Source of the DNA: Terriglobales bacterium
Lineage (GTDB): Bacteria > Acidobacteriota > Terriglobia > Terriglobales > Acidobacteriaceae
Reading direction: 5' to 3'
Length of the DNA stretch: 64,000 bases
Assembly (NCBI GenBank): GCA_035629075.1
Contig: DASPIK010000086.1
Span: 17,027-81,026 of the forward strand
Part shown: positions 1 through 12,056 of the stretch, piece after piece
Numbering within the stretch: the first letter of the stretch is position 1
Layout: each line of letters begins with the position of its first letter
Notes under the pieces: model-generated
Databases searched by the model: none
Told to the model about the DNA's origin: nothing
What the model saw: the letters and a program-made list of their open reading frames with translations, nothing else
Program-made: the position numbers and the translations under genes

Positions 1-306
1 AACCGTCCGCAGCACGTCCATGGGCAACGCATGCCTGGGTGCCTGCCGCAGCAGGCTGATGATAGAAGCGTCGAGTTTGCTCTCCCGCCATAGGCAGATG
101 CGAAGATCCTGCAGTTCAGCTCTTGTCGGAAGCCATCCGCGCCAGAGCAGAAAGCAGACTTCCTCGAACGTGGCCTGATCGGCCAGATCGTGAATGTCGT
201 ATCCTCGATAAGCCAACACTCCATTATCGCCATCGATGTAGCAGATGCTGGAGTTTGCGGCGGTAACGCCTTCAAGCCCGCGGCCCACAATCGGTGTGCT
301 TCCCAT
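1..306 (-). CDS. Citrate synthase family protein, N-terminal 102 codons (gene continues beyond the left edge)
   Basis: Not in the ORF track because it is truncated. Manual reverse translation from ATG at 306 gives MGSTPIVGRGLEGVTAANSSICYIDGDNGVLAYRGYDIHDLADQATFEEVCFLLWRGWLPT. This matches the citrate/2-methylcitrate synthase N-terminus (GLEGV, IDG, YRGY-I-x-DLA, FEEV..LLW.G.LP). Confidence 0.75.
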   Translation of the reverse strand, partial: MGSTPIVGRGLEGVTAANSSICYIDGDNGVLAYRGYDIHDLADQATFEEVCFLLWRGWLPTRAELQDLRICLWRESKLDASIISLLRQAPRHALPMDVLRTV

Positions 307-612
307 TGTATCCCCCTGACTCTGGATGGTCGCGCGGTTGAATGTTGTTGCCTAGCTAACGAAACACCGTTGGAATCACAGAAGCGGCGTTTACTGAGAC
401 TCCGCCGTGATTTGCCCTGCCGCGCGTTGCCTTGTATATTCCTCTGTTCCCATAGGGGCTTCGGCACGCGTGTGTGTGGCGCATCCGGTGTGTCGAGTGC
501 AAGATGCGCTGCGGATCCGCGGTTACCCAAGCGGAACTGGGGCGACACACGTTCACGCCGAAGAAACTAGACGGCTCGTTCCGCCATCTCCCCAGGAATC
601 GGAGAAAACTGC

Positions 613-2805
613 ATGATGCGTCGCGGCATTCTAATCGCAACCCTTATCTTGGCAATCGCTGGCATGGCGGTCGCGGAAGAGGGAATGTGGTTGTTCAATC
701 ACCCGCCCACAGCAAAGATCAAGGCGAAATACGGCTTTGAACTCACGCAGCCGTGGCTCGACCATACGCGCCTGTCATCTGTACGGTTTAACAACGGCGG
801 CTCGGGATCTTTCGTCTCTCCTGAAGGTCTGACCTTCACCAACCATCACGTCGCGCAGACCTGTCTTTACGGTCTCTCCAAGGAGGGCCAGGATCTCTAT
901 AAGACCGGCTTTTATGCGAAGACACGCGCTGAAGAACCCCGGTGCCCAGATCTTGAACTGAACCAGTTAGTGGGCATCGAAGACGTAACCGAGAAAGTCA
1001 ACGCCGGGATCAAGAACGACACGCCAGCAGCCGAAGCCGGCACCATCCAACGCAAGAACATGTCGCAGATTGAAAACGACTGCACGAAGAGCACCGGCAA
1101 CCGTTGCGATGTGGTCACGCTCTATGCTGGCGGTCAGTTTCATTTGTACCAGTACAAGAAGTACACGGACGTGCGCCTGGTGTTCGCGCCCGAGTTCGGC
1201 ATCGCGTTCTTCGGTGGCGATCCCGACAACTTCGAGTTCCCGCGTTACGACCTCGATGTCACGTTCTTCCGGGTCTACGAGAATGGCCAGCCTGCCAAAC
1301 TCGGCAGCAATCACTTCAAGTGGACGACGACAGGCGTAAAGGATGGCGACCTTGTATTCGTGTCCGGGCATCCAGGCTCGACCGGTCGCCTGAACACCAT
1401 GGCGCAAATGGAGTTCTTGCGGGAAGTGGCTTACCCGTGGCAATTGAAGTCGCTCGCCCGCCGTGTCGCCCTGATGAAGAACTACATGGCGCAGTCGGCG
1501 GAAAATGCTCGCCGGGCGCAAGAATTGTTGTTCGGGCTTGAGAACTCGCAGAAGGCCATCAAGGGCTACAACTCCGGCCTGCTTGACGAATCGTTGATGG
1601 CGAAGAAGGCGGCCGAAGAGAAGAAATACATCGAGTGGGTCAATGCTGATCCCAAGCGCAAGGCTGAATTCGGTGCGCCCTGGCCCGACATTGCTAAGGC
1701 CATGCAGGTCCAAAAAGAGATCTACATGCCCCTGACTTACCTCGAGCGGCGGAACGGTTTCCGCGGCACGCTTGCAGGTATCGCACGCACCCTACTCCGC
1801 GTCACGGAGGAGAAGACCAAACCCAATACTGACCGCTTGCGCGAATACCGAGAGTCGGCACTGCCGTCCCTGGAGCAATCGCTTTTCGCAGGAGACCCGA
1901 TCTACAAGGACTTCGAGGAACTTCAGCTGGCCGACTCCATGAAGGAGATGGCCGAGCAGATGCCCAATAACGCTCTGCTGGAGAAGATTCTCAACGGCCG
2001 CACGCCCGACCAAGCTGCTAAAGAGATGATCTCCGCCACTAAGTTGAACGACGTGGCAGTCCGCAAGGAACTCTACAACGGCGGCGTAAAGGCGGTTCAG
2101 GCCAGCACCGACCCGCTGATCCGGGCGATGATCCTCATCGATCCCGAAGCTCGCAAAGTTCGCAGGCAGTATGAAGACGAGGTCGAGTCGGTCGAGCGTA
2201 CCGGCGGTGCCAGACTGGCGAAAATTCGGTTTGCGCAGGAAGGTTACAGCACGGCGCCAGATGCAACTTTCACGCTCCGCCTCAGCTACGGTGCGGTAAA
2301 AGGATTTGTCGAGGACGGCCGCGGCAGCATCGCCAAAAAGGGCGAGAAGGTTCCGTACTTCACCACGATTGACGGGGCTTTCAAGCATGCGGATGCGCAC
2401 GGTAACAAAGCACCTTGGGAATTGCCGCCAAGCTGGATCAAAGCAAAAGGCAAGCTGAATGGCCAAACGCCGCTGAACTTTGTCTCGACGCCTGACATCA
2501 TTGGCGGCAACTCGGGTTCACCGGTCGTCAACAAGGCTGGTGAAGTCGTAGGCATCATCTTCGACGGCAACATACAGTCGCTCCCGTGGCGCTTCCAGTA
2601 CGAAGACGTTGTCGGACGCGCCGTGAGCGTTGACGCCCGCGGCATCATCGAGGCGCTCCGAAACATCTATGGCGCCGGTGCACTCGCCGATGAACTGACC
2701 AGGGGTGCAAAGGCTGCTTCTGGCCCTAAGACCGTTACCCACAAAAAGAACGGCAGAAAAGCTATTGAGCAAAAGGCAACGGTCAAAGCAGAACCCAAGC
2801 AGTAG
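613..2805 (+). CDS. Peptidase S46 family dipeptidyl-peptidase (DPP7/DPP11-like), secreted
   Basis: 730-aa ORF. A signal peptide is followed by AEEGMWLFNHPP (S46 N-terminal hallmark). TNHHV marks the catalytic His region and GGNSGSPVVN the catalytic Ser near the C-terminus. Confidence 0.85.
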   Translation: MMRRGILIATLILAIAGMAVAEEGMWLFNHPPTAKIKAKYGFELTQPWLDHTRLSSVRFNNGGSGSFVSPEGLTFTNHHVAQTCLYGLSKEGQDLYKTGFYAKTRAEEPRCPDLELNQLVGIEDVTEKVNAGIKNDTPAAEAGTIQRKNMSQIENDCTKSTGNRCDVVTLYAGGQFHLYQYKKYTDVRLVFAPEFGIAFFGGDPDNFEFPRYDLDVTFFRVYENGQPAKLGSNHFKWTTTGVKDGDLVFVSGHPGSTGRLNTMAQMEFLREVAYPWQLKSLARRVALMKNYMAQSAENARRAQELLFGLENSQKAIKGYNSGLLDESLMAKKAAEEKKYIEWVNADPKRKAEFGAPWPDIAKAMQVQKEIYMPLTYLERRNGFRGTLAGIARTLLRVTEEKTKPNTDRLREYRESALPSLEQSLFAGDPIYKDFEELQLADSMKEMAEQMPNNALLEKILNGRTPDQAAKEMISATKLNDVAVRKELYNGGVKAVQASTDPLIRAMILIDPEARKVRRQYEDEVESVERTGGARLAKIRFAQEGYSTAPDATFTLRLSYGAVKGFVEDGRGSIAKKGEKVPYFTTIDGAFKHADAHGNKAPWELPPSWIKAKGKLNGQTPLNFVSTPDIIGGNSGSPVVNKAGEVVGIIFDGNIQSLPWRFQYEDVVGRAVSVDARGIIEALRNIYGAGALADELTRGAKAASGPKTVTHKKNGRKAIEQKATVKAEPKQ

Positions 2806-2828
2806 CGATTGAGCCATGAGAGCGGCGG

Positions 2829-2865
2829 GCCGCACCCTTTTCCTCGTTCATGGGGAGGGTGCGGC
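2829..2865 (+). terminator. Hairpin downstream of the S46 peptidase gene (possible terminator)
   Basis: gccgcaccc (2829-2837) pairs with gggtgcggc (2857-2865), about 25 nt after the stop codon. There is no clean U-tract. Confidence 0.3.
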
Positions 2866-3049
2866 TCCGCTGTGTTACCAATTCATCAGGCAGGTTCCTC
2901 TAAAGCTGCTTATAGCTGATCAGACACGTTCCACTGAGGGCTGAGAGCTGATGGCTGGCAGCTGGCTTACCCAATGCCCGCAAAGTACCCCGTAAGTTGG
3001 ATAGAAAGAGCCACTTTCACCTTTTCTTCGCCTGCGCTAGAATGCGCGG

Positions 3050-4294
3050 GTGGACCTATCCTCCAAGCTCCGAATATTGGCCGACGCGGCGAAGTACGAC
3101 GCTTCTTGCGCCAGTAGCGGCGCTCGCCGGGCAAATGACGGGAAGAGCCTCGGCAGCAATTCCGGATGCGGCGTCTGCCACAGCTACACGCCTGACGGCC
3201 GTTGCATTTCTCTGCTGAAGGTCCTGCTGACGAACTACTGCATCTACGATTGCGTCTTCTGCGTCAATCGGGTTTCCAGTGACATCGAGCGCACCCGCTT
3301 CACACCCGCAGAGGTTATTAACCTCACGCTCGACTTTTACCGGCGCAACTACATCGAAGGGCTATTTCTCAGCTCGGGAATCATTCAGTCGCCCGACTAC
3401 ACGATGGAGCAACTCATCACCGTTGCACGGACGCTCCGGACCGAGCACCGATTCGCCGGCTACATTCACCTGAAGGCAATTCCCGGCTCTTCCACACTCT
3501 TGCTGGATGAAGCTGGCCGCTGGGCCGACCGCCTGAGCGCCAACATCGAACTGCCCACGCAAACTGATCTGGATACTCTCGCACCAGAGAAGCAGGTTCC
3601 GGTCATTGAATCGACCATGCAGGAGATCAAGATGAAGGCGGAGGAAAGCCGGGTCGAGAGAAAGAGAACCCGCCGTGCGCCTCGCTTTGCGCCTGCCGGG
3701 CAGAGCACGCAGCTCATCGTGGGTGCGACACCCAGCACAGATTCGCAAATCCTGCGCACGGCTGACCGGCTTTACGGCAGCTATGGTTTGCGGCGCGTTT
3801 ACTACTCCGCCTTTAGTCCGTTCCCAAAAGCTGACGCGCGATTACCTATCCAGGCTCCGCCTCTTCTGCGCGAGCATCGCCTGTATCAGGCGGATTGGCT
3901 GCTCCGGTACTACGGCTTCACGATCAGCGAAGTCACCGAGGAACCGAATCTCGACATGGAACGTGACCCTAAGCTTGCATGGGCACTCCGACATCGCGAG
4001 TTCTTCCCTATCGACATCAACAATGCTTCGCGCGAAGCATTGTTGCGCGTGCCCGGACTGGGATATCGCAACGCCAACCGTATTCTTTCCATTCGTCGCT
4101 ATCACCGCCTCACTCTGGCTGATTTGGCAAAGTTACGCGTGGCACTCACCCGCTTGAAGCCCTTCGTCATCACGGCAGATTTCAATCCCGATGCACTGCA
4201 GCTCGACCGTGCGGATCTGCCGCAGCGAATTGTGCAGCCGCAACAGATGGGCCTATTCCAATCGGCGCTTGAGGCGCAGTCGGGTGAGTTGTGA
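3050..4294 (+). CDS. Putative DNA modification/repair radical SAM protein with C-terminal helix-hairpin-helix
   Basis: 414-aa ORF with GTG start. It has the radical-SAM cluster motif CIYDCVFC and the C-terminal HhH LLRVPGLGYRNANRIL. Its stop overlaps the start of the next ORF by 4 nt. Confidence 0.85.
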   Translation: MDLSSKLRILADAAKYDASCASSGARRANDGKSLGSNSGCGVCHSYTPDGRCISLLKVLLTNYCIYDCVFCVNRVSSDIERTRFTPAEVINLTLDFYRRNYIEGLFLSSGIIQSPDYTMEQLITVARTLRTEHRFAGYIHLKAIPGSSTLLLDEAGRWADRLSANIELPTQTDLDTLAPEKQVPVIESTMQEIKMKAEESRVERKRTRRAPRFAPAGQSTQLIVGATPSTDSQILRTADRLYGSYGLRRVYYSAFSPFPKADARLPIQAPPLLREHRLYQADWLLRYYGFTISEVTEEPNLDMERDPKLAWALRHREFFPIDINNASREALLRVPGLGYRNANRILSIRRYHRLTLADLAKLRVALTRLKPFVITADFNPDALQLDRADLPQRIVQPQQMGLFQSALEAQSGEL

Positions 4295-5715
4295 GACAGG
4301 TTGAGATAACCCGCAGCTTCAAGGCATGGCAGTACGCCGCGCGCGACTTGCTGCGCAATGGGGTCCCGCCGAGCGAAGTGATTTGGCACGAACGAGCGGC
4401 ACAACAATCTGCTTTGTTCGCGCAGAACGCAACGACGCGCGTTGATGCCAACAACACGGCCGGTTCCAGCGAAATCCGCGTTCCCGCTCGATTCCTCGAT
4501 GTCGCCAAACACGTAGCCGCGCATAGGACTGCCTCGAAATGGGCTTCGCTCTATACCGTCTTGTGGCGAATCGTGCATGAAAACCGGAATCTGTTACGTG
4601 TGCAAGTCGATCCTGACGTCGAAAGCCTCCTGCGAATGGATCGAGAGGTGCGTCACGACGCTCATCGAATGCAGGGTTTTTTGCGCTTCCGCAAGGTCTT
4701 GAACGATGGCTCTGACTATTACGTCGCGTGGTACCGACCGGACCACTACGTAGTTCCAATGGTCGCGCCGTTCTTCGCGAACCGGTTCAGCACGATGAGA
4801 TGGTCGATACTGACGCCGGATTGCTCCGCAGATTGGAACGGCTCCGAGTTGCGATTCGGCCCTGGCGTAGATCGCACTCGTGCTCCTGCCGATGATGAAC
4901 TCGAAAAACTGTGGCGCACCTACTACCAGGCGACTTACAACCCGGCGCGCACGAATGTGAAGCTCATGCGACAGGAGATGCCAGCACGGCACTGGGCCAC
5001 GCTGCCCGAAGCCGACGCGATTGCTCAGGCCCTAATTGACGCACCGCACCGCATTCACCGCATGGAAGAGGCGGCGAAGCAAGCGCCTAGCGCACTGTCT
5101 CTTGTTCCGGCAACGAGCAGCCTAGATGAGCTCCGCGCCGCCGCCACCCACTGTGATGGGTGCCCGCTGCACCGATGTGCCACCCAGACCGTATTTGGCG
5201 AAGGTCCGCAGCAGGCGCGCGTGGTCCTCATCGGCGAGCAGCCCGGGGATCAGGAGGATCTCGCAGGCAAGCCTTTCGTTGGCCCTGCGGGTGAGGTGCT
5301 TGATCGTGCGCTGCGCGAAGCTGGTCTCAATCGTTCCGCGATCTACATTACGAACGCCGTCAAGCACTTCAAGTTTGTCGAGCGTGGAAAGCGCCGCCTG
5401 CATCAGACGCCCAGGCCTCTGGAAGTCGTGGCCTGCCGGCCATGGCTCGAGGCGGAACTTCGTGTGATCCGCCCCGAGATAATCGTCTGCCTTGGATCGA
5501 CTGCCTCACGATCGCTTTTGGGAGCGACATTTCAGCTTATGCGCGAGCGTGGCCGCTTTCTTCAGACACGCTGGGCTCCCAAACTCATCGCTACCCTCCA
5601 TCCCTCGGCCGTGTTGCGGGCTGGCGTGGACGAAGACCAGCAACGCGCGTACGAAATGCTTCGCGACGACTTACGCGTGGTGGCGGGCGAGCTTAAGCGC
5701 ACCACCTCTGACTAA
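4291..5715 (+). CDS. DUF4130-like domain fused to a UdgX-type (family 4-like) uracil-DNA glycosylase domain
   Basis: 474 aa. The N-terminal half carries YVAWYRPDHYVV, WSILTPD and LWRTYYQATYNPAR. The C-terminal half carries FGEGP, GEQPGDQEDLAGKPFVGPAGEVL, the KRRLH loop, HPS and Fe-S cysteines (CDGC, ACRPW, VCLG). Confidence 0.85.
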   Translation: MRQVEITRSFKAWQYAARDLLRNGVPPSEVIWHERAAQQSALFAQNATTRVDANNTAGSSEIRVPARFLDVAKHVAAHRTASKWASLYTVLWRIVHENRNLLRVQVDPDVESLLRMDREVRHDAHRMQGFLRFRKVLNDGSDYYVAWYRPDHYVVPMVAPFFANRFSTMRWSILTPDCSADWNGSELRFGPGVDRTRAPADDELEKLWRTYYQATYNPARTNVKLMRQEMPARHWATLPEADAIAQALIDAPHRIHRMEEAAKQAPSALSLVPATSSLDELRAAATHCDGCPLHRCATQTVFGEGPQQARVVLIGEQPGDQEDLAGKPFVGPAGEVLDRALREAGLNRSAIYITNAVKHFKFVERGKRRLHQTPRPLEVVACRPWLEAELRVIRPEIIVCLGSTASRSLLGATFQLMRERGRFLQTRWAPKLIATLHPSAVLRAGVDEDQQRAYEMLRDDLRVVAGELKRTTSD

Positions 5716-6109
5716 GCCGCGTCCCGCTTCTGCGTACTGGAGTTCTTTCGCGACGAGGCATTCGCTTTCCGAGGCTCCCCAAGATGTTGCGCAGCGCTCT
5801 TTCTCGTGTGCGGGTGCTCCGCCTGCCAATTGCTAAGCTGACGCTTTCGCTTAGCCCGGAACCCCTGCTCGCTTGGTGTTAGCTTGGATTCCGCTTTCGG
5901 TCTGCAACTGTGCCCTGTTCGTGTTGTTTCTTGCCTTTCACAGGCTCGTAGCCGGGGCAGCAACGGTTCTCATTTTTTGCCATTACCGTAAGACTGGACC
6001 GGTCAGGCGCGACGTTGTCAGACGCTGCGAGCAGCGAGTTTCTCGTTTTACCGCAAGGAAAGAAAAACCGCGCCATAGTCGGGCGGTGAAAAATCCTTTG
6101 TGGTCGGAG

Positions 6110-6676
6110 CTAAGCCACCTGCTGCCGCTGTTTCTGCTCCGAAAACACCGCGATCATTTCGCGATTGAACGCTGGAATGTCAGTCGGCTGACGGCTGCTC
6201 ACCCAGTTACGATCCCGCACGCATTCCTGATCGACCCAGTCCGCTCCTGCGTTCTTGAGATCATCCTGGATTGTGTGATAGCTCGTCATTCGACGGCCCT
6301 TCACCAACCCAGCCGACACCAACAGCCATGGCCCGTGGCAGATCACGGCTATCGGCTTTCCGGAGCGATCTATCTTGCGCACGAATTCCTGCGCCATCTT
6401 GTTGACGCGCAGATTGTCGGCGTTGAGAGCGCCGCCCGGCAGAAGTACTGCGTCAAAGTCGTCAGGATTGGCACGGTCAAGACCCATGTCCACTTTGATC
6501 TTGTCTGCTTTCTCATCGTGTTTAAAACCCTGTACTTCGCCTTGTTTCGGCGAGACGACCAGAGCTTTTGCACCAGCACTTTCCAATGCTTTCCTCGGTT
6601 CGGTCAATTCTGATTGCTCGAAGTCGTCGGTCACCAGAATGGCGACACGCATTCCATCCAGTTGATTTCCGGCCAT
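6110..6676 (-). CDS. DJ-1/PfpI family protein (intracellular protease / general stress protein 18-like)
   Basis: 188 aa with RVAILVTDDFEQSELTEP and the nucleophile elbow IAVICHGPWLL, typical of PfpI/YhbO class I glutamine-amidotransferase-like proteins. Confidence 0.85.
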   Translation of the reverse strand: MAGNQLDGMRVAILVTDDFEQSELTEPRKALESAGAKALVVSPKQGEVQGFKHDEKADKIKVDMGLDRANPDDFDAVLLPGGALNADNLRVNKMAQEFVRKIDRSGKPIAVICHGPWLLVSAGLVKGRRMTSYHTIQDDLKNAGADWVDQECVRDRNWVSSRQPTDIPAFNREMIAVFSEQKQRQQVA

Positions 6677-6793
6677 TGCCGTCTCTCCTTCTTGGAATCA
6701 GCAGTGTCTGAGTATTAGGTTTGGGTGTATGGTGTTTGATGCGATAGACAGTGCCCTCAGCACTACAACCCCGTTCCATCCGCCAACTAAGGA

Positions 6794-9166
6794 CTATTTG
6801 CCGCCAGTGACCGCGATCGGAGCCGAAAGCACTCGCGCCGAATTCCGCGGTTTACGAGGAGTAGTTTTCCAAAGCGCAGCGGCCTCGGCGTTGTCGCCGG
6901 AGCGGTAGTAGGCTTCCGAAAGATGCTGGCGGATCGCAGCAAGTTCCTTAAGATTTGTGTTCTTCTGAGAGGCGAACAGAACGGCCTTCTTCAGCACGGC
7001 GACGGCCTGCGAGTACTCGCGACGTTTCAGATGGACGAAGCCGAGAGTGTCCAGCACTTGAGCACTGTCAGGACGCAGTGTCCGTGCGTGGAGTGCCAGC
7101 GAAATAGCGCGGTCGAGATCTTTCCCTTCGTTCGCCAACAGCCACGCCAGGTTGTTTGCAGCTATACCCGAAGCATCGCCCTCGCGAACGGCGAGATCGT
7201 ACTCGCGAATAGCTGCGGGCACGTTCCGCTCCTCCTCGGCGCGCACAGCGCGGAGCACGGCAGATCGGCTTCCGCCAATCGCAGAACCCGCAGCCAACGC
7301 AGAGACGTAGTCACCCCGGTTCGCCTGTATGCCGGCGAGCAGAGCCGCTGAGGTAGCGCGTTTCGGGTCTACGGACAATGCTCGCTGGAAGCACCGGCGG
7401 GCATCGGCGTGCCATCCGCGTTCCGCATAGATTCGGCCAGCGATCTCCCACAGGGGAGCGGATGCAGGCGGCATCTCGGCGATCCGCTCCAATTTGGCGA
7501 GCATGGGTTTGGTGATTTTGCCGCGACGATACACCCGTGAAAGACCCTCCAGCGCTTCTTCTGAACGCGGTTCCAAAGCAATCGCCTGTTCGAAAGCTCC
7601 GAGCGCTGAAGGTATGTTTCCTTGCGCCAGAGCAATTTTCCCAAGCGTGACGTGCGGTTCCGCGTTGCCAGTGTCCAGTTTGATAGCTCGACGAGCAATC
7701 AATGCTGCGGACTCGTATCGCCGCTGTTCCGCCAGCACCCGGGCGAACAAGTTCAGCGCCTGTACGTTGCCCGGTTCTTCGCGAACTACCGAAATCACGT
7801 ACTCCTCCGCTCCAGAAGAATCGCCGGTCCTGAGTGCGTCCGCCGCCAACGCGAGCCGCGCCGGAACATAAGACGGGTCCTGCTCGTACGAGGTCGTAAA
7901 GTCTGTGCGAGCATTGGCGGTTTCTCCCCGCAGGTACTTAACTACCCCGCGGACGTAATGCGCTGAGGGTGAACTGGGAGCCTGCGCGACCGCGCCCTCG
8001 GCGTGTACTGCCGCCTTCGTGAGATTCCGTTCCGCGATGGCGATTTCCGCTTCCAGCGTGCTGACGGTTGCCGGGTCAAGTTCCTGTCGATACTGCTCCA
8101 GGTGCAGACGCGCGGCAGCGGTCGCATTCTCGGGCACCTCTGCACCCGCCCCCTTGCCCCCGGCCTGGAGGTCGGCCTCTATAACGCGCGCAGCAACCGA
8201 TGCGCGGTTCGCTGCAGTTTCCGGAGCGAACTTCCCCGCTCTCGACCAGAGCCAGCCCGTCCGGACCTTCTTCTCCATGGGCGGAGAGCGGAGCGCGATC
8301 GTATATCGATCAAGAGCCGAGATCGGCTGGCCCGAGATGAACTTGAAATCCGAGAGCGCGATCGGCAGATCCGGTCGCAGGCGATCGGCATGCGCCAATA
8401 TCTTCTCGGCATCGCCGACTCTCGAAGTACGTTGCAGGAATTGCGCGAGTCGCAGATTCGCTTCTACGGTATCCTCGGCAGCGACCGCATTACGATAAGC
8501 CTGCTCCGCAGCCCCGGCATCCCCTTCCTGCTCTTCGAGCCGTCCCAAGGCCAGCCACGGCCTGGAACTGGCAGGTTGGGCCGCCGCTGCCTGCCTCAGA
8601 ACTCTTCTCGCATCTTCGACTCGGTCTTCGCGGTTGTAGATGTCAGCCAGAGCAACAGCAACGTTCACCCTCTGCGGATCCGATTCCAGCACGCGCTCAA
8701 ACGCCTTTTGTGCCAGGCGCGTGTCGCCCACTGCCGAAGAGGCTGCCCCTAGCAGGGCGAGACCATCCACGTTGGCCGACGCAAGTTGCAGGACCGTATG
8801 CGCTTGTTCCGTCGCACGTTGCGCAGCCCCGCCGGCCAGATAGATTTCCCCAAGGCGAAGATGGGCCGGTACGTTCTTCGCATCAGTTTCGGCAGCGGCC
8901 TGAAACGCCGCGAAAGCTTCGTTCACCTTGTCCAATCGCCAGAAACATTCGCCCATCCGAAAATAGACCTGCGAGCGCAGATGGTGATCACTGGCGGGAA
9001 TGTGCGCGAGTAGTGCGGCGTACTTGGACAGCGCCTTCTCGGTGCTTCCCTGCTTCTCAAACTGATAGGCACGCTCAAAACGATAACGAGAGACGCTGGA
9101 GCAACCGGTACCAAGACCGATGATGACCGCGAGAAAGACAAAGGAAAGTAGTATCCGACGGGACAT
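6794..9166 (-). CDS. TPR-repeat lipoprotein
   Basis: 790 aa. Signal peptide with lipobox-like LGTGCSS, then many Ala/Leu/Tyr-rich 34-aa TPR-like repeats throughout. Confidence 0.8.
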   Translation of the reverse strand: MSRRILLSFVFLAVIIGLGTGCSSVSRYRFERAYQFEKQGSTEKALSKYAALLAHIPASDHHLRSQVYFRMGECFWRLDKVNEAFAAFQAAAETDAKNVPAHLRLGEIYLAGGAAQRATEQAHTVLQLASANVDGLALLGAASSAVGDTRLAQKAFERVLESDPQRVNVAVALADIYNREDRVEDARRVLRQAAAAQPASSRPWLALGRLEEQEGDAGAAEQAYRNAVAAEDTVEANLRLAQFLQRTSRVGDAEKILAHADRLRPDLPIALSDFKFISGQPISALDRYTIALRSPPMEKKVRTGWLWSRAGKFAPETAANRASVAARVIEADLQAGGKGAGAEVPENATAAARLHLEQYRQELDPATVSTLEAEIAIAERNLTKAAVHAEGAVAQAPSSPSAHYVRGVVKYLRGETANARTDFTTSYEQDPSYVPARLALAADALRTGDSSGAEEYVISVVREEPGNVQALNLFARVLAEQRRYESAALIARRAIKLDTGNAEPHVTLGKIALAQGNIPSALGAFEQAIALEPRSEEALEGLSRVYRRGKITKPMLAKLERIAEMPPASAPLWEIAGRIYAERGWHADARRCFQRALSVDPKRATSAALLAGIQANRGDYVSALAAGSAIGGSRSAVLRAVRAEEERNVPAAIREYDLAVREGDASGIAANNLAWLLANEGKDLDRAISLALHARTLRPDSAQVLDTLGFVHLKRREYSQAVAVLKKAVLFASQKNTNLKELAAIRQHLSEAYYRSGDNAEAAALWKTTPRKPRNSARVLSAPIAVTGGK

Positions 9167-9267
9167 GAACGCCGCTCAGCCAGAGCGTGTCCGTAAGATG
9201 AGCAGCGTTTCGTTAGAGATGCAATTGGGCCTGCTTTTAAGTTCGCCGTACAGGCAACTGCCTGGCG

Positions 9268-10407
9268 CTAGCTCATCGTCTCCACCTCAACAACCGGCGG
9301 CCCGCCTCCCGGCTGCACCTCCGTTGTGCGTTTGAGCTGCCCGCACGCCGCATAGATGTCCCGCCCTCTTGGCCTTCTAATAAATGCAGGAATACCGGCG
9401 CGCACAAGTATTCTCTGGAAGCTCAGGACACGATCTTCCTCGGGCGTCGCAAACGGAATGTCAGGCCCGGGATTGAGCGCGATAAGATTGACCTTCCCAC
9501 GAATGCCCCTGAGTAGCTTCACTATCTCGCGGGCGTTTTCAGCCTGGTCATTGACGTCGCGCAATAGCACGTATTCAAACGTGAGCTTCTCCCGTGCGCG
9601 CAACGGAAAGTCTCGTACAGCGTTCAACAATTGCTGAAGGTTCCACTTGCGGTTGATCGGCATCACACGTTCGCGCAGTTCATCATTTGAGGCGTTCAAG
9701 GAGATGGCCAGCTTTGGACGCACCGGTTCCTTCGCGAAGTCGTAAATGCGTGGAACGATTCCGGCTGTCGAAACCGTCATGCGCGATTCCGGGATGCCGA
9801 CGCCGTCAACCAAGAGGTGAACCGCTTGCATGAAGTTGTCGTAGTTCAGGAATGGCTCACCCATCCCCATGAAGACCAAGTTGATCCGGTCACTTCCGAT
9901 CGCTACATCGCGGTCGTTCAGGACGGCGAGTATCTGGCCGACTATCTCCCCGGCAGCCAGGCTGCGCTTCACTCCCAAGAGTGCGGTCAAACAGAATTGG
10001 CAATTAACGGCACAGCCGACCTGACTCGACACGCAGATGGTGGCACGGTTGAAGTCACGCTTCTGCTCATCTTCGCTACCGTCTCCCTCTTCGCCGCCGT
10101 CCCCCTCAGGCATCCACACCGTCTCAACCGTTTGGCCATCGCTGAGTGAAATCAGGTAACGGATCGTTCCATCAACCGACATGAACTTGTTCTGAATTGT
10201 TGGCAGTCCGACGGTAAAGCGGCTTTCGAGCTGCTCCCGAATTGCTTTCGGAAGCGTCGAAATATGCTCAATATTTCCAATCCGCTGCCGGTACACGGCC
10301 TCAAACAGCTGCTTACCTCTGTAGGGTGGCTCGCCCAGACCCGTCAAAATGGCCGTAAGTCCTTGAATATCAAGGCCTAATATCTCGATTTGTTTCCGGT
10401 CAGACAT
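9268..10407 (-). CDS. rlmN: 23S rRNA (adenine2503-C2)-methyltransferase, radical SAM
   Basis: 379 aa with the radical-SAM motif CAVNCQFC, FMGMGEPFLNYD and C-terminal AACGQL, consistent with RlmN length and architecture. Confidence 0.9.
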   Translation of the reverse strand: MSDRKQIEILGLDIQGLTAILTGLGEPPYRGKQLFEAVYRQRIGNIEHISTLPKAIREQLESRFTVGLPTIQNKFMSVDGTIRYLISLSDGQTVETVWMPEGDGGEEGDGSEDEQKRDFNRATICVSSQVGCAVNCQFCLTALLGVKRSLAAGEIVGQILAVLNDRDVAIGSDRINLVFMGMGEPFLNYDNFMQAVHLLVDGVGIPESRMTVSTAGIVPRIYDFAKEPVRPKLAISLNASNDELRERVMPINRKWNLQQLLNAVRDFPLRAREKLTFEYVLLRDVNDQAENAREIVKLLRGIRGKVNLIALNPGPDIPFATPEEDRVLSFQRILVRAGIPAFIRRPRGRDIYAACGQLKRTTEVQPGGGPPVVEVETMS

Positions 10408-10585
10408 GCATCCAATTACCTGTTTAACAGATTAGAATCAGTTGCGGCGACAAGGAAGCAGCCGAATCCAGCGGACAACCACAAAAGGCCCCAGTCTTTC
10501 GCTTCGGGCTTGCAGCACGATTTAGCAGTGGTGTGCATTTGCGGCTCCCCGCATCGGTTTACACGCGCAAGCATGGGGATCGGAA

Positions 10586-11863
10586 ATGGTCGAAGAACTT
10601 CGAAATATTAACCGCACAGTACTGCCTAACGGCTTGACAATCATAACTGAGGCCATGACTCATATTCGCTCGGTGTCTATCGGCATATGGGTGAAGGCCG
10701 GCTCTCGCCATGAAGACGCCGAGCACAACGGCATCACTCATTTTATAGAGCACATGGTGTTCAAAGGCACGGCTACCCGCTCAGCCGAAGACATCGCCCG
10801 CCAAGTGGACTCCATCGGCGGCAACATGGATGCGTTCACCGCAAAAGAATGCATCTGCTTCAATGTCAAAGTGTTGGACGAACATCTTCCAATCGCACTT
10901 GAAGTCCTGAGCGACCTCGTACTGAACCCAGTCTTTGACGTAAAGGACATAACTCGTGAGCGCGGAGTGATTCTGGAAGAGATCAAAATGGACGAGGACA
11001 ACCCCGACTATCTCGTTCACGAAATCTTTACCCAGAACTTCTGGAAGGACCACCCGCTAGGTAAGCCGATCTTGGGCACGAAGGAGACCGTCCGGCGCTT
11101 CGAGCAGCAGATGGTGAAAGACTATTGGTCGCACCGATTCCAGCCCGGCAACCTTATCGTATGTGCAGCGGGTCGCATCGACCACCAGCAATTCACTGAC
11201 CTGATCAGCCATCACTTTGCCTCACTCGCGAACGGCACGAATGGGTTCCATGAGGCGCCGCCTAAAACCGTAGCGCGAATCATCATGAGGAATAAGAAGG
11301 CGCTTGAACAGGTGCAGATCTGTCTAGGGGTGCCGTCTCACCCCATCTCGCATGATAAGCGATACGCTTCTTATCTCTTGAACACAGTCCTTGGCGGTGG
11401 CATGAGCTCGCGTCTGTTTCAGAACGTTCGTGAACGACAAGGTCTGGCCTATTCGGTTTTCAGCGACCTAAACCCGTATCGCGATACCGGCTGCCTGTCT
11501 GTGTATGCAGGGACGTCGCGCAAGACGGCTCCCCTGGTCGTCCAATCCGTCGTTGCCGAGTTCCACCGCCTCAAGGCAGAAGAGGTTCCCGCCGAGGAAC
11601 TGCGCCGCGCAAAGGATCAGCTCAAAGGCAGCCTTATGCTGAGCCTTGAATCCAGCACGGCACGAATGAGCAATCTTGCCCGCCAGGAAATGTACTTCGG
11701 GCGATTCCTTTCGATGGACGAAATCATCGCCCGTATCGAAGCCGTGACCGCCGACGACATTGTTCAGCTTGCGAACGAGTTCTTCCGACCGGAGCACATT
11801 GCAGTAACAGTGCTTGGCAACTTGACTGGGATGAAGCTTACACGCGAACAGCTAGCGTGTTGA
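10586..11863 (+). CDS. M16 family (pitrilysin/insulinase-like) zinc peptidase
   Basis: 425 aa with the inverted zinc motif HFIEHMVFKGT (HxxEH) and typical M16B length. Confidence 0.85.
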   Translation: MVEELRNINRTVLPNGLTIITEAMTHIRSVSIGIWVKAGSRHEDAEHNGITHFIEHMVFKGTATRSAEDIARQVDSIGGNMDAFTAKECICFNVKVLDEHLPIALEVLSDLVLNPVFDVKDITRERGVILEEIKMDEDNPDYLVHEIFTQNFWKDHPLGKPILGTKETVRRFEQQMVKDYWSHRFQPGNLIVCAAGRIDHQQFTDLISHHFASLANGTNGFHEAPPKTVARIIMRNKKALEQVQICLGVPSHPISHDKRYASYLLNTVLGGGMSSRLFQNVRERQGLAYSVFSDLNPYRDTGCLSVYAGTSRKTAPLVVQSVVAEFHRLKAEEVPAEELRRAKDQLKGSLMLSLESSTARMSNLARQEMYFGRFLSMDEIIARIEAVTADDIVQLANEFFRPEHIAVTVLGNLTGMKLTREQLAC

Positions 11864-12056
11864 CATCACCGCACGTGTCGGCGACTATTGCCTACTTTGA
11901 CAACAGTTGGCCAGATAAGTAACATCGACCTATTCGGGGAGAGCTGCGGCTCTGTAATCCTTGAAGAGGCTCTCGAGGAATATCCAGCCGGATTTATACC
12001 TCGCCATCCATCCCGGAAGAGAGACTCTTCATCCAGCAAAGTTCAAGAGGAGTAGT

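Follow-up and report, generated by a model that had tools for sequence, protein, structure and literature searches.

A radical-SAM and DUF4130::UdgX gene pair of a Terriglobales bacterium with a probable LexA-controlled promoter

What does a radical S-adenosylmethionine (SAM) enzyme do next to a uracil-DNA glycosylase (UDG) of the kind that crosslinks itself to DNA, and when are the two made? The question is raised by a two-gene operon (3050-5715, both genes on the + strand) in a stretch of 64,000 nucleotides (nt) from the genome of a Terriglobales bacterium (contig DASPIK010000086.1, positions 17,027 to 81,026), which we refer to throughout as the window. The first open reading frame (ORF), ORF1, encodes a radical-SAM protein with a helix-hairpin-helix (HhH) region, and the second, ORF2, a fusion of a DUF4130 domain to a UdgX domain (Table 1). 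On balance we favor the view that the products form a damage-induced radical complex on damaged DNA, probably tethered to the sliding clamp, in which UdgX acts as the covalent anchor at uracil or abasic sites. The module is among the more widespread SOS-regulated gene pairs for which no reaction is known.

The module is not new, being named in NCBIfam and annotated in this genome's own record. A GenBank protein from a Terriglobales metagenome-assembled genome (MAG) matches ORF1 at 100% identity, and the sequence of ORF2 is exactly that of HYH00425.1, 'UdgX family uracil-DNA binding protein [Terriglobales bacterium]'; the existing annotation of the locus thus already agrees with the initial annotation from which we started. 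The reading frames, the GTGA at which they overlap and all of the motifs quoted in that annotation are present at the positions it gave, and the three profile models that it had named (TIGR03916, TIGR03915 and TIGR03914) all exceed their curated cut-offs. The overlap of the ORF1 stop with the ORF2 start implies translational coupling. The family, a 'known unknown', has been catalogued already; the locus is a typical member of it, and the window adds nothing unusual. What we add here is a clamp-type tail, an extra Cys/His triad, a lineage-specific LexA box and the finding that UdgX is optional.

With respect to when the pair is made, the region ahead of ORF1 reads TTCAC-N6-TTCGC, CTGCGC, TAGAAT and then 6 nt to the GTG start. 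The combination TTCACC-16-TAGAAT is the sole promoter-like site between 2600 and 6200, and no Shine-Dalgarno-like sequence precedes ORF1. Since the -10 hexamer lies 6 nt from the GTG, a leaderless transcript is implied. The exact alphaproteobacterial GTTC-N7-GTTC box is absent upstream of ORF1, and a lineage-specific box was therefore derived from the data. A metagenome scan for TTCGC-N6-TTCGC-TATAAT produced 120 hits (L081-L200), and in ~70 of them the next gene is lexA, starting 6-7 nt past the hexamer; 2 others precede recA and 1 precedes a RecA-like (ImuA-type) gene. The source records call the lexA products 'repressor LexA' and assign some of them to Acidobacteriaceae. The occurrence of the repeat before lexA, recA and imuA-like genes thus marks it as the LexA box of the acidobacterial lineage, in agreement with the title of Mazon et al. 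(2006), according to which Acidobacterium capsulatum has a LexA box of alphaproteobacterial kind. The 6 nt between the -10 hexamer and the start of ORF1 are also the distance found in acidobacterial lexA promoters.

Related loci carry similar sites. Our scan for relatives, with one genome per species, found 589, and the locus counts given here use the best 80 of them. At the same position the two closest relatives (L204 and L205) have TTCGC-N6-TTCTC and TTCGT-N6-TTCGC, and nTTC-N7-nTTCGC, a direct repeat beside a -10-like hexamer, is common to the acidobacterial loci. Boxes with at most one mismatch are present within 100 nt upstream of 15 of the 80 radical-SAM genes, the expectation being 0.0086 per promoter; at least nine of these 15 loci belong to Acidobacteriota or to the closest relatives of the window, and the rest are MAGs of other groups or of unknown taxonomy. 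The 64-kb window contains a single instance of box and -10 hexamer at this spacing, versus 0.04 expected. Other lineages have boxes of other kinds: a perfect GTTC-N7-GTTC box precedes the radical-SAM gene in 41 alphaproteobacterial loci, in most of them ~27 nt ahead of the start, and four Comamonadaceae loci have CTGT-N8-[AC]CAG boxes. The COG1573-COG4277 operon is reported to be LexA-controlled in Verrucomicrobia, Alphaproteobacteria and Bacteroidetes (PMC8565304), and knockout of ddaA in Acinetobacter lowers the basal transcription of DNA-damage-response genes that include a radical-SAM gene and a TIGR03915 gene (PMC12392091). Taken together, these sites make it likely that the operon in the window is under LexA control.

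Several minor observations concern the same type of site. The acidobacterial lexA gene starts 6-7 nt past a TATAAT that abuts the LexA box (for example, L082 8095-8116), so that the lexA mRNA, too, is apparently leaderless. The acidobacterial box also precedes genes for a restriction-endonuclease-like protein (Pfam REase-ARP), an AAA ATPase and a 910-aa protein (L156, L198, L176 and L096), a hint that LexA in Acidobacteria also controls some genes of defence-like type. Three Xanthomonas loci (L035, L063 and L064) have no recognised LexA box and instead a conserved palindrome, GTCTCA-N5-TGAGAC, ~20-40 nt before the radical-SAM start. In an Akkermansiaceae locus (L030), TGTTC-N4-GAACG is found ~15 nt ahead of the radical-SAM gene, one mismatch from what we take to be the verrucomicrobial LexA motif, TGTTC-N4-GAACA, and consistent with the published SOS control there.

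As to what the pair might do, the C-terminal half of ORF2 is the more readily interpreted part. ORF2 scores 274.5 bits with TIGR03914 ('UdgX family'; cut-off 189.95) and matches Pfam UDG with E = 2.2e-33. The domain is ~54-60% identical to UdgX of Mycobacterium smegmatis (54% in Foldseek), and its AlphaFold model superposes in Foldseek on two dozen UdgX crystal structures with template-modeling (TM) scores of 0.91-0.95 and root-mean-square deviations (rmsd) of 1.1-1.5 Å. The three features in which the initial annotation had recognized the hallmarks of UdgX (GEQPG, KRRLH and HPS) all align in register with the M. smegmatis protein in phmmer (E = 3e-65). In the first of them, E316 and Q317 of ORF2 are the equivalents of E52 and Q53 of M. 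smegmatis UdgX, Gln replacing Ala/Gly, and the last belongs to HPSAVLR, which fits the motif B pattern HPS(S/A)(L/V)(L/V)R given in the abstract of PMC10359453. None of the four cluster cysteines (C288, C291, C382 and C400) varies in a set of 24 fusions. Whether His371 coincides with the crosslinking histidine had been raised as a check: K367-H371 aligns one to one with K105-H109 of M. smegmatis UdgX and the domain superposes on UdgX within the rmsd just given, so that His371 is the counterpart of the crosslinking His109, a residue whose mutation turns M. smegmatis UdgX into a turnover enzyme. Among related loci GEQPG is found in 75 of 77 with a fusion, and a K-x-R-[ILM]-H-type loop with its histidine in 77 of 80. 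This retention of GEQPG and of the Arg-x-His loop argues that the fused domains are UdgX-type crosslinkers and not generic family-4 enzymes. The ORF2 domain keeps all of the residues needed for the M. smegmatis reaction and, judged by them, should be catalytically complete.

The N-terminal half of ORF2 is a DUF4130 domain, which matches the Pfam model (PF13566) with 133.5 bits against a threshold of 27 (E = 7.8e-39) and in which the motifs YVAWYRPDHYVV, WSILTPD and LWRTYYQATYNPAR are all found. In a set of 20 diverse DUF4130 domains the invariant polar residues include D107, D123, H125, R132, N217 and R220. There is also a weaker second peptide resembling a clamp-binding motif, QSALF, in a loop (aa 38-59) with a predicted local distance difference test (pLDDT) value <50; QxxLF occurs at this site in ~57 of 120 homologues and xxxLF in ~25 more, and in the 20-domain set L42 is invariant and F43 nearly so. 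A comparison of the DUF4130 profile with PDB sequences gave nothing meaningful. A 2026 preprint, in which DUF4130 is still a domain of unknown function, presents an AlphaFold 3 prediction for Lachnospiraceae homologues, a radical-SAM/DUF4130 complex with a narrow single-strand channel, and assigns DUF4130 the place that the RNA-binding (OB-fold) domain occupies in MiaB (bioRxiv 10.64898/2026.08.19.745780). In the AlphaFold model of ORF2 (pLDDT 83) both domains are folded with confidence, and yet the predicted TM score (pTM) is 0.50, which suggests a flexible link between DUF4130 and UdgX. A Foldseek search with the whole ORF2 model was dominated by matches of the UDG domain.

ORF1 scores 574.5 bits with TIGR03916 (cut-off 343.5), and the match covers positions 2-401 of the 415 in the model. 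Its AlphaFold model (pLDDT 78) has Foldseek matches in the PDB to generic radical-SAM cores only (HydE, HydG, RlmN, MiaB and BioB, at ~15% identity), and a PDB sequence search with ORF1 gave no meaningful match. The radical-SAM protein is 65-70% identical across phyla, the corresponding values being ~40-50% for DUF4130 and ~50-55% for the UdgX domain. The C-terminal HhH of the initial annotation is its weakest item: LLRVPGLGYRNANRIL is present and the region lies within the span of the TIGR03916 match, but HHH_3 reaches 24 bits, below the Pfam threshold of 27. In the PDB, a chain with an HhH of ComEA type gives E = 0.012 with this region of ORF1, in which R333, P335, G336 and G338 are invariant across 30 homologues.

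At the other end of ORF1, just N-terminal to the CxxxCxxC, the pattern KYDxSCxSSG ... GxCH[SA]Y..DGRC (aa 20-52) is invariant across phyla, and its C20, C43-H44 and C52 are kept even in a 48%-identical Acinetobacter protein. The AlphaFold confidence is low in this region. Such invariant residues near the radical-SAM motif suggest a second metal or Fe-S site, and we consider that they probably form a second cluster or metal site, of which no description was found in the literature searched.

The C-terminal tail of ORF1 carries a candidate motif for binding the beta sliding clamp. Q-[LM]-x-L-F is found in the tail of 119 of 120 ORF1 homologues; among the genome loci the strict form is present in 48 of 77, with mostly QxxLF, QLxLL, QLGFGF or QLQLPL in the remainder, and in Alphaproteobacteria the motif is the extreme C-terminus of the radical-SAM protein. 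The last 18 residues of ORF1 are predicted to be disordered (tail pLDDT <50). The bacterial consensus for clamp binding is QL[S/D]LF or, more generally, QxxLF (PMC12309361). Many homologues from outside the Alphaproteobacteria end in ...A..TGEL or SGEL after this motif (ORF1 aa 408-414, 4271-4291); G412 of ORF1 is invariant in the 30-sequence set, and the codons of the TGEL/SGEL tail overlap the start of ORF2.

The two genes belong together over a wide range of bacteria. The best 80 of the 589 relatives come from Acidobacteriota, Verrucomicrobiota, Planctomycetota, Myxococcota and Pseudomonadota, with one actinobacterium. All 120 of the best ORF2 homologues have both DUF4130 and UDG, and in 78 of the 80 loci, from six phyla, the gene just upstream, in the same orientation, encodes a radical-SAM protein. 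Of 77 related loci, 32 show a stop/start overlap, of either 4 nt or 1 nt. A third partner was sought among 146 ORFs flanking the pair, and no family occurred in more than 5, which indicates that the radical-SAM/ORF2 pair is autonomous. The two closest relatives of ORF1 (79% and 74% identical) are syntenic with the window, having a peptidase S46 gene upstream. An exhaustive search for the DUF4130 domain gave 2671 cluster representatives, and of the best 150 about half have the length of a fusion and half a stand-alone length; Acinetobacter, too, has a radical-SAM/DUF4130 pair without a UDG domain. Phage records hardly ever contain the gene, which is mostly found on non-mobilizable replicons.

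Two side observations belong to this survey. The 240-kb record CAKLQH020000003.1 (L211), named 'Acinetobacter phage MD-2021a', has glyQ and glyS beside a radical-SAM/DUF4130 pair; since these genes make the record look bacterial-chromosomal, the few 'phage' matches to the family are unreliable. In Sphingomonas there is a ~160-aa ORF between the radical-SAM and DUF4130::UdgX genes, which at 7492-7965 of L047 is a hemerythrin (HHE) by Pfam, and similar ORFs with the same N-terminal sequence are present in L049, L053, L055, L057 and L067. In these aerobes the hemerythrin may protect or sense the oxygen-sensitive Fe-S clusters of both proteins.

Term searches of the biochemical literature on UdgX found no mention of an operon, a fusion or LexA control of the gene; SOS comes up there solely as something that the UdgX-DNA complex is proposed to set off downstream, and UdgX and radical SAM are never mentioned together in the literature searched. 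The description of the module in the initial annotation as widespread but biochemically uncharacterised is upheld by this result and by the standing of DUF4130 in the 2026 preprint. There are thus two literatures that do not meet, SOS genomics, which speaks of ordinary UDG repair, and UdgX biochemistry, which deals with a stand-alone protein. UdgX-type crosslinkers, the clamp-type tail with the second metal site and the acidobacterial LexA box, when put together, provide a specific hypothesis that can be tested at the bench.

We picture the sequence of events as follows. LexA would probably repress the leaderless promoter through the repeat at 3016-3031, and DNA damage would induce both proteins together. 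ORF1 would most likely heterodimerise with the DUF4130 domain of ORF2, as the published AlphaFold 3 prediction of homologues suggests; such a heterodimer is consistent with the gene pairing conserved in 78 of the 80 loci. The QMGLF tail could then attach the complex to beta clamps left behind at gaps and at stalled primer ends, where the SOS polymerases work. Uracil is the main deamination product in exposed single-stranded DNA. Since all of the M. smegmatis reaction residues are kept, ORF2 should excise it, and the UdgX domain would then bond through His371 to the resulting abasic sugar. The covalent bond would both shield the abasic site from breakage and, through the flexible linker, pin the complex to the DNA, while ORF1 would run a 5'-deoxyadenosyl-radical reaction on DNA nearby. 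The most likely reaction would be one that directly reverses or processes a lesion which blocks replication and which, lying in a single-stranded template, cannot be cut out. The more explicit form of this proposal, that an SOS-induced, clamp-tethered radical-SAM/DUF4130 core directly reverses or processes fork-blocking lesions of single-strand templates and that the fused forms might also process the UdgX-DNA crosslink, is put forward tentatively, and the chances are rather against it. If it were true, the pair would represent a DNA-repair chemistry with a single precedent, spore photoproduct lyase, as well as a new class of clamp client.

A number of observations weigh against the scheme that we favor. 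Over the full length of the window, boxes with at most one mismatch show no enrichment (12 observed, 10.6 expected). The box before ORF1 has one mismatch and is separated from the -10 hexamer by 6 nt, whereas the boxes that the scan picked up before lexA abut their hexamers, as its search pattern required. The window has no lexA gene, and neither lexA nor recA was found there or among the first 80 loci related to it, so that the regulator is not tied to this genome. With its Gly at position 3, QMGLF is predicted to bind DnaN weakly, as the QMGLF of Bacillus subtilis DnaE does (PMC12309361). In the two closest syntenic relatives the counterparts of ORF2, of 265 aa and 281 aa, end exactly at the point at which UdgX would begin, and there are stand-alone UdgX genes without a radical-SAM/DUF4130 neighbour (a 98%-identical M. 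smegmatis-type protein and a Rhodococcus homologue). UdgX is therefore an optional add-on to the radical-SAM/DUF4130 core and not the substrate of that core, and the two activities may perhaps be only loosely connected. The mechanism proposed in the initial annotation, in which a base lesion is marked and then chemically processed, was pure inference and is weakened by this dispensability of UdgX. Finally, the chemistry of the radical-SAM/DUF4130 members is a guess.

The same facts bear on two other accounts of the uracil chemistry. The operon could be a trap together with its own resolvase, in which radical-SAM/DUF4130 undoes or cuts out the His-C1' crosslink of UdgX. The trap is, after all, fused to the partner of the radical enzyme, the linker would keep the crosslink close enough for the radical-SAM active site to reach it, and the UdgX literature, which invokes RecA or proteases, is without a dedicated resolution pathway. 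However, radical-SAM/DUF4130 pairs that lack the UDG are about as common as fused ones, the closest syntenic relatives and Acinetobacter among them, and the stand-alone UdgX genes have no radical-SAM neighbour; that each part exists alone argues against a radical enzyme whose purpose is to process the UdgX adduct, and such self-resolving suicide repair strikes us as quite improbable. Papers on SOS comparative genomics assume ordinary uracil-glycosylase repair for this operon, which would make ORF2 a multiple-turnover UDG that clears uracil or bases misincorporated by SOS polymerases and would leave the radical-SAM gene functionally separate. The UDG domain does indeed exceed the cut-off of the general family-4 model, TIGR00758, too. 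But GEQPG, R369, H371 and E316 are all in place, the histidine that M. smegmatis UdgX must lose in order to turn over is kept in 77 of 80 fusions, and independence is hard to square with genes so tightly paired and with a fusion to the partner domain of the radical-SAM protein; for conventional base excision repair we see little probability.

It is also conceivable that the radical-SAM enzyme installs a modification of base or backbone, with DUF4130 and UdgX as targeting modules. The family name, 'DNA modification/repair', leaves room for this, DUF4130 systems 'might modify thymines' according to Aravind and colleagues, and the RNA-modifying RlmN and MiaB are among the closest structural neighbours of ORF1. 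Against it, LexA boxes of four motif types upstream of the operon indicate a response to damage, no restriction, methylase or defence partner is conserved among the 146 flanking ORFs and there are no PADLOC hits, and a covalent anchor that is used once is ill-suited to guiding modification across a genome, which makes this an improbable role. A uracil-specific suicide crosslinker would be toxic to phages with uracil-DNA, and one could imagine UdgX crosslinking such DNA while the radical enzyme damages the phage genome; moreover, the damage-response and defence networks of Moraxellaceae share a regulator according to the abstract of PMC12392091. Yet PADLOC found no defence-system match for ORF1, ORF2 or the ORF downstream, the flanking genes are housekeeping genes that differ from locus to locus and form no defence island, and the distribution described above, mostly away from phages and mobilizable replicons, does not fit either. 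We regard anti-phage defence as very improbable and return to the damage-induced anchored complex for comparison with known systems.

The closest of these is M. smegmatis UdgX (among others PDB 6ail, 6ajo and 6iod), with which ORF2 shares the fold, GEQPG, the R-loop with the crosslinking His, HPSAVLR and the four cluster cysteines. It differs in that its UdgX is the C-terminal half of a 474-aa protein with DUF4130 at the N-terminus, and is predicted to be made in coupled translation with a radical-SAM enzyme, from an operon that follows a LexA-type box, whereas the mycobacterial and Rhodococcus UdgX that have been studied are stand-alone proteins of ~210 aa without such neighbours. At the level of the operon, the window contains a member of the TIGR03916/TIGR03915 pairs (the 'COG1573-COG4277 UDG operon'), with the same families, order, strand and overlap; the acidobacterial version is set apart from other such pairs by its TTCGC-N6-TTCGC box and its apparently leaderless promoter. 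The Caulobacter genome paper lists CC2333 among the four COG1573 UDGs of that species.

More distant comparisons concern the parts. SplB (COG1533) is likewise a radical-SAM protein that acts on DNA, and it is SOS-regulated in several lineages; ORF1 differs by its additional N-terminal Cys/His triad, its HhH region and its clamp-type tail. To our knowledge, spore photoproduct lyase is the only precedent for the direct reversal of a DNA lesion by a radical-SAM enzyme. A kinship of ORF1 with SplB was considered and rejected, SplB being outside the top 50 Foldseek matches and there being no PDB sequence match; the older 'SplB-like' label for the radical-SAM protein is thus unsupported by the structure matches. 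RlmN and MiaB, which are among the best structural matches, resemble the ORF1 system in joining a radical-SAM core to an accessory nucleic-acid-binding module, but they have RNA substrates and are without UDG fusion, LexA box or clamp-type motif. The SRAP/HMCES/YedK proteins offer a functional analogy only: they are single-use, act covalently at abasic sites and are tied to the SOS response and to operons of mutagenic polymerases, but their fold and chemistry are unrelated to those of UdgX. SRAP forms a thiazolidine through Cys2, UdgX a His-C1' bond, and SRAP excises no base.

Table 1. Positions in the window of the features of the gene pair and, in the last three rows, of its neighbours
Feature	Position	Strand	Remarks
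LexA-box-like direct repeat TTCAC-N6-TTCGC	3016-3031	+	1 mismatch to TTCGC-N6-TTCGC; overlaps the -35/spacer
-10 hexamer TAGAAT	3038-3043	+	6 nt before the GTG of ORF1
ORF1	3050-4294	+	GTG start, 414 aa; TIGR03916 radical-SAM/HhH protein
N-terminal C20 ... C43-H44 ... C52	3107-3205	+	invariant in 30 homologues
Radical-SAM cluster motif CIYDCVFC (C64, C68, C71)	3239-3262	+	CxxxCxxC; invariant in 30 homologues
HhH DNA-binding region (aa 321-350), including LLRVPGLGYRNANRIL (aa 331-346)	4010-4099	+	Pfam HHH_3 E = 4.3e-5, sub-threshold
QMGLF (aa 399-403)	4244-4258	+	candidate beta-sliding-clamp-binding motif; disordered C-terminal tail
GTGA stop/start overlap of ORF1 and ORF2	4291-4294	+	read from the sequence
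ORF2	4291-5715	+	GTG start, 474 aa; DUF4130::UdgX fusion
DUF4130/TIGR03915 domain (aa 7-241)	4309-5013	+	TIGR03915 206.9 bits, cut-off 112.25
QSALF (aa 39-43)	4405-4419	+	weaker second clamp-motif-like peptide; low-confidence DUF4130 loop
UdgX-type family-4 uracil-DNA glycosylase domain (aa 266-465)	5086-5685	+	phmmer against M. smegmatis UdgX E = 3e-65
Motif A GEQPG (aa 315-319)	5233-5247	+	aligns with M. smegmatis UdgX residues 51-55
R-loop KRRLH (aa 367-371)	5389-5403	+	in register with KRRIH, K105-H109 of M. smegmatis UdgX
Motif B HPSAVLR (H437-R443)	5599-5619	+	H178-R184 of M. smegmatis UdgX; HPS is aa 437-439, nt 5599-5607
Peptidase S46 gene	613-2805		upstream of the pair
Perfect 10-bp hairpin	2829-2865		after the peptidase S46 gene
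DJ-1/PfpI family gene	6110-6676	-	convergent; real gene downstream of ORF2

With respect to the borders of the operon, an ORF on the + strand at 5873-6613 was considered as a third gene and rejected as spurious: it matches no family or defence system, has an odd amino-acid composition and no homologue in any of the loci fetched, and it overlaps the genuine DJ-1/PfpI gene on the opposite strand. An Rfam scan of positions 1-12000 of the window gave no match. Further downstream there is a second radical-SAM gene, unrelated to the operon (9268-10407, - strand), whose product has an RlmN N-terminal domain and is probably an ordinary 23S rRNA/tRNA methyltransferase RlmN.

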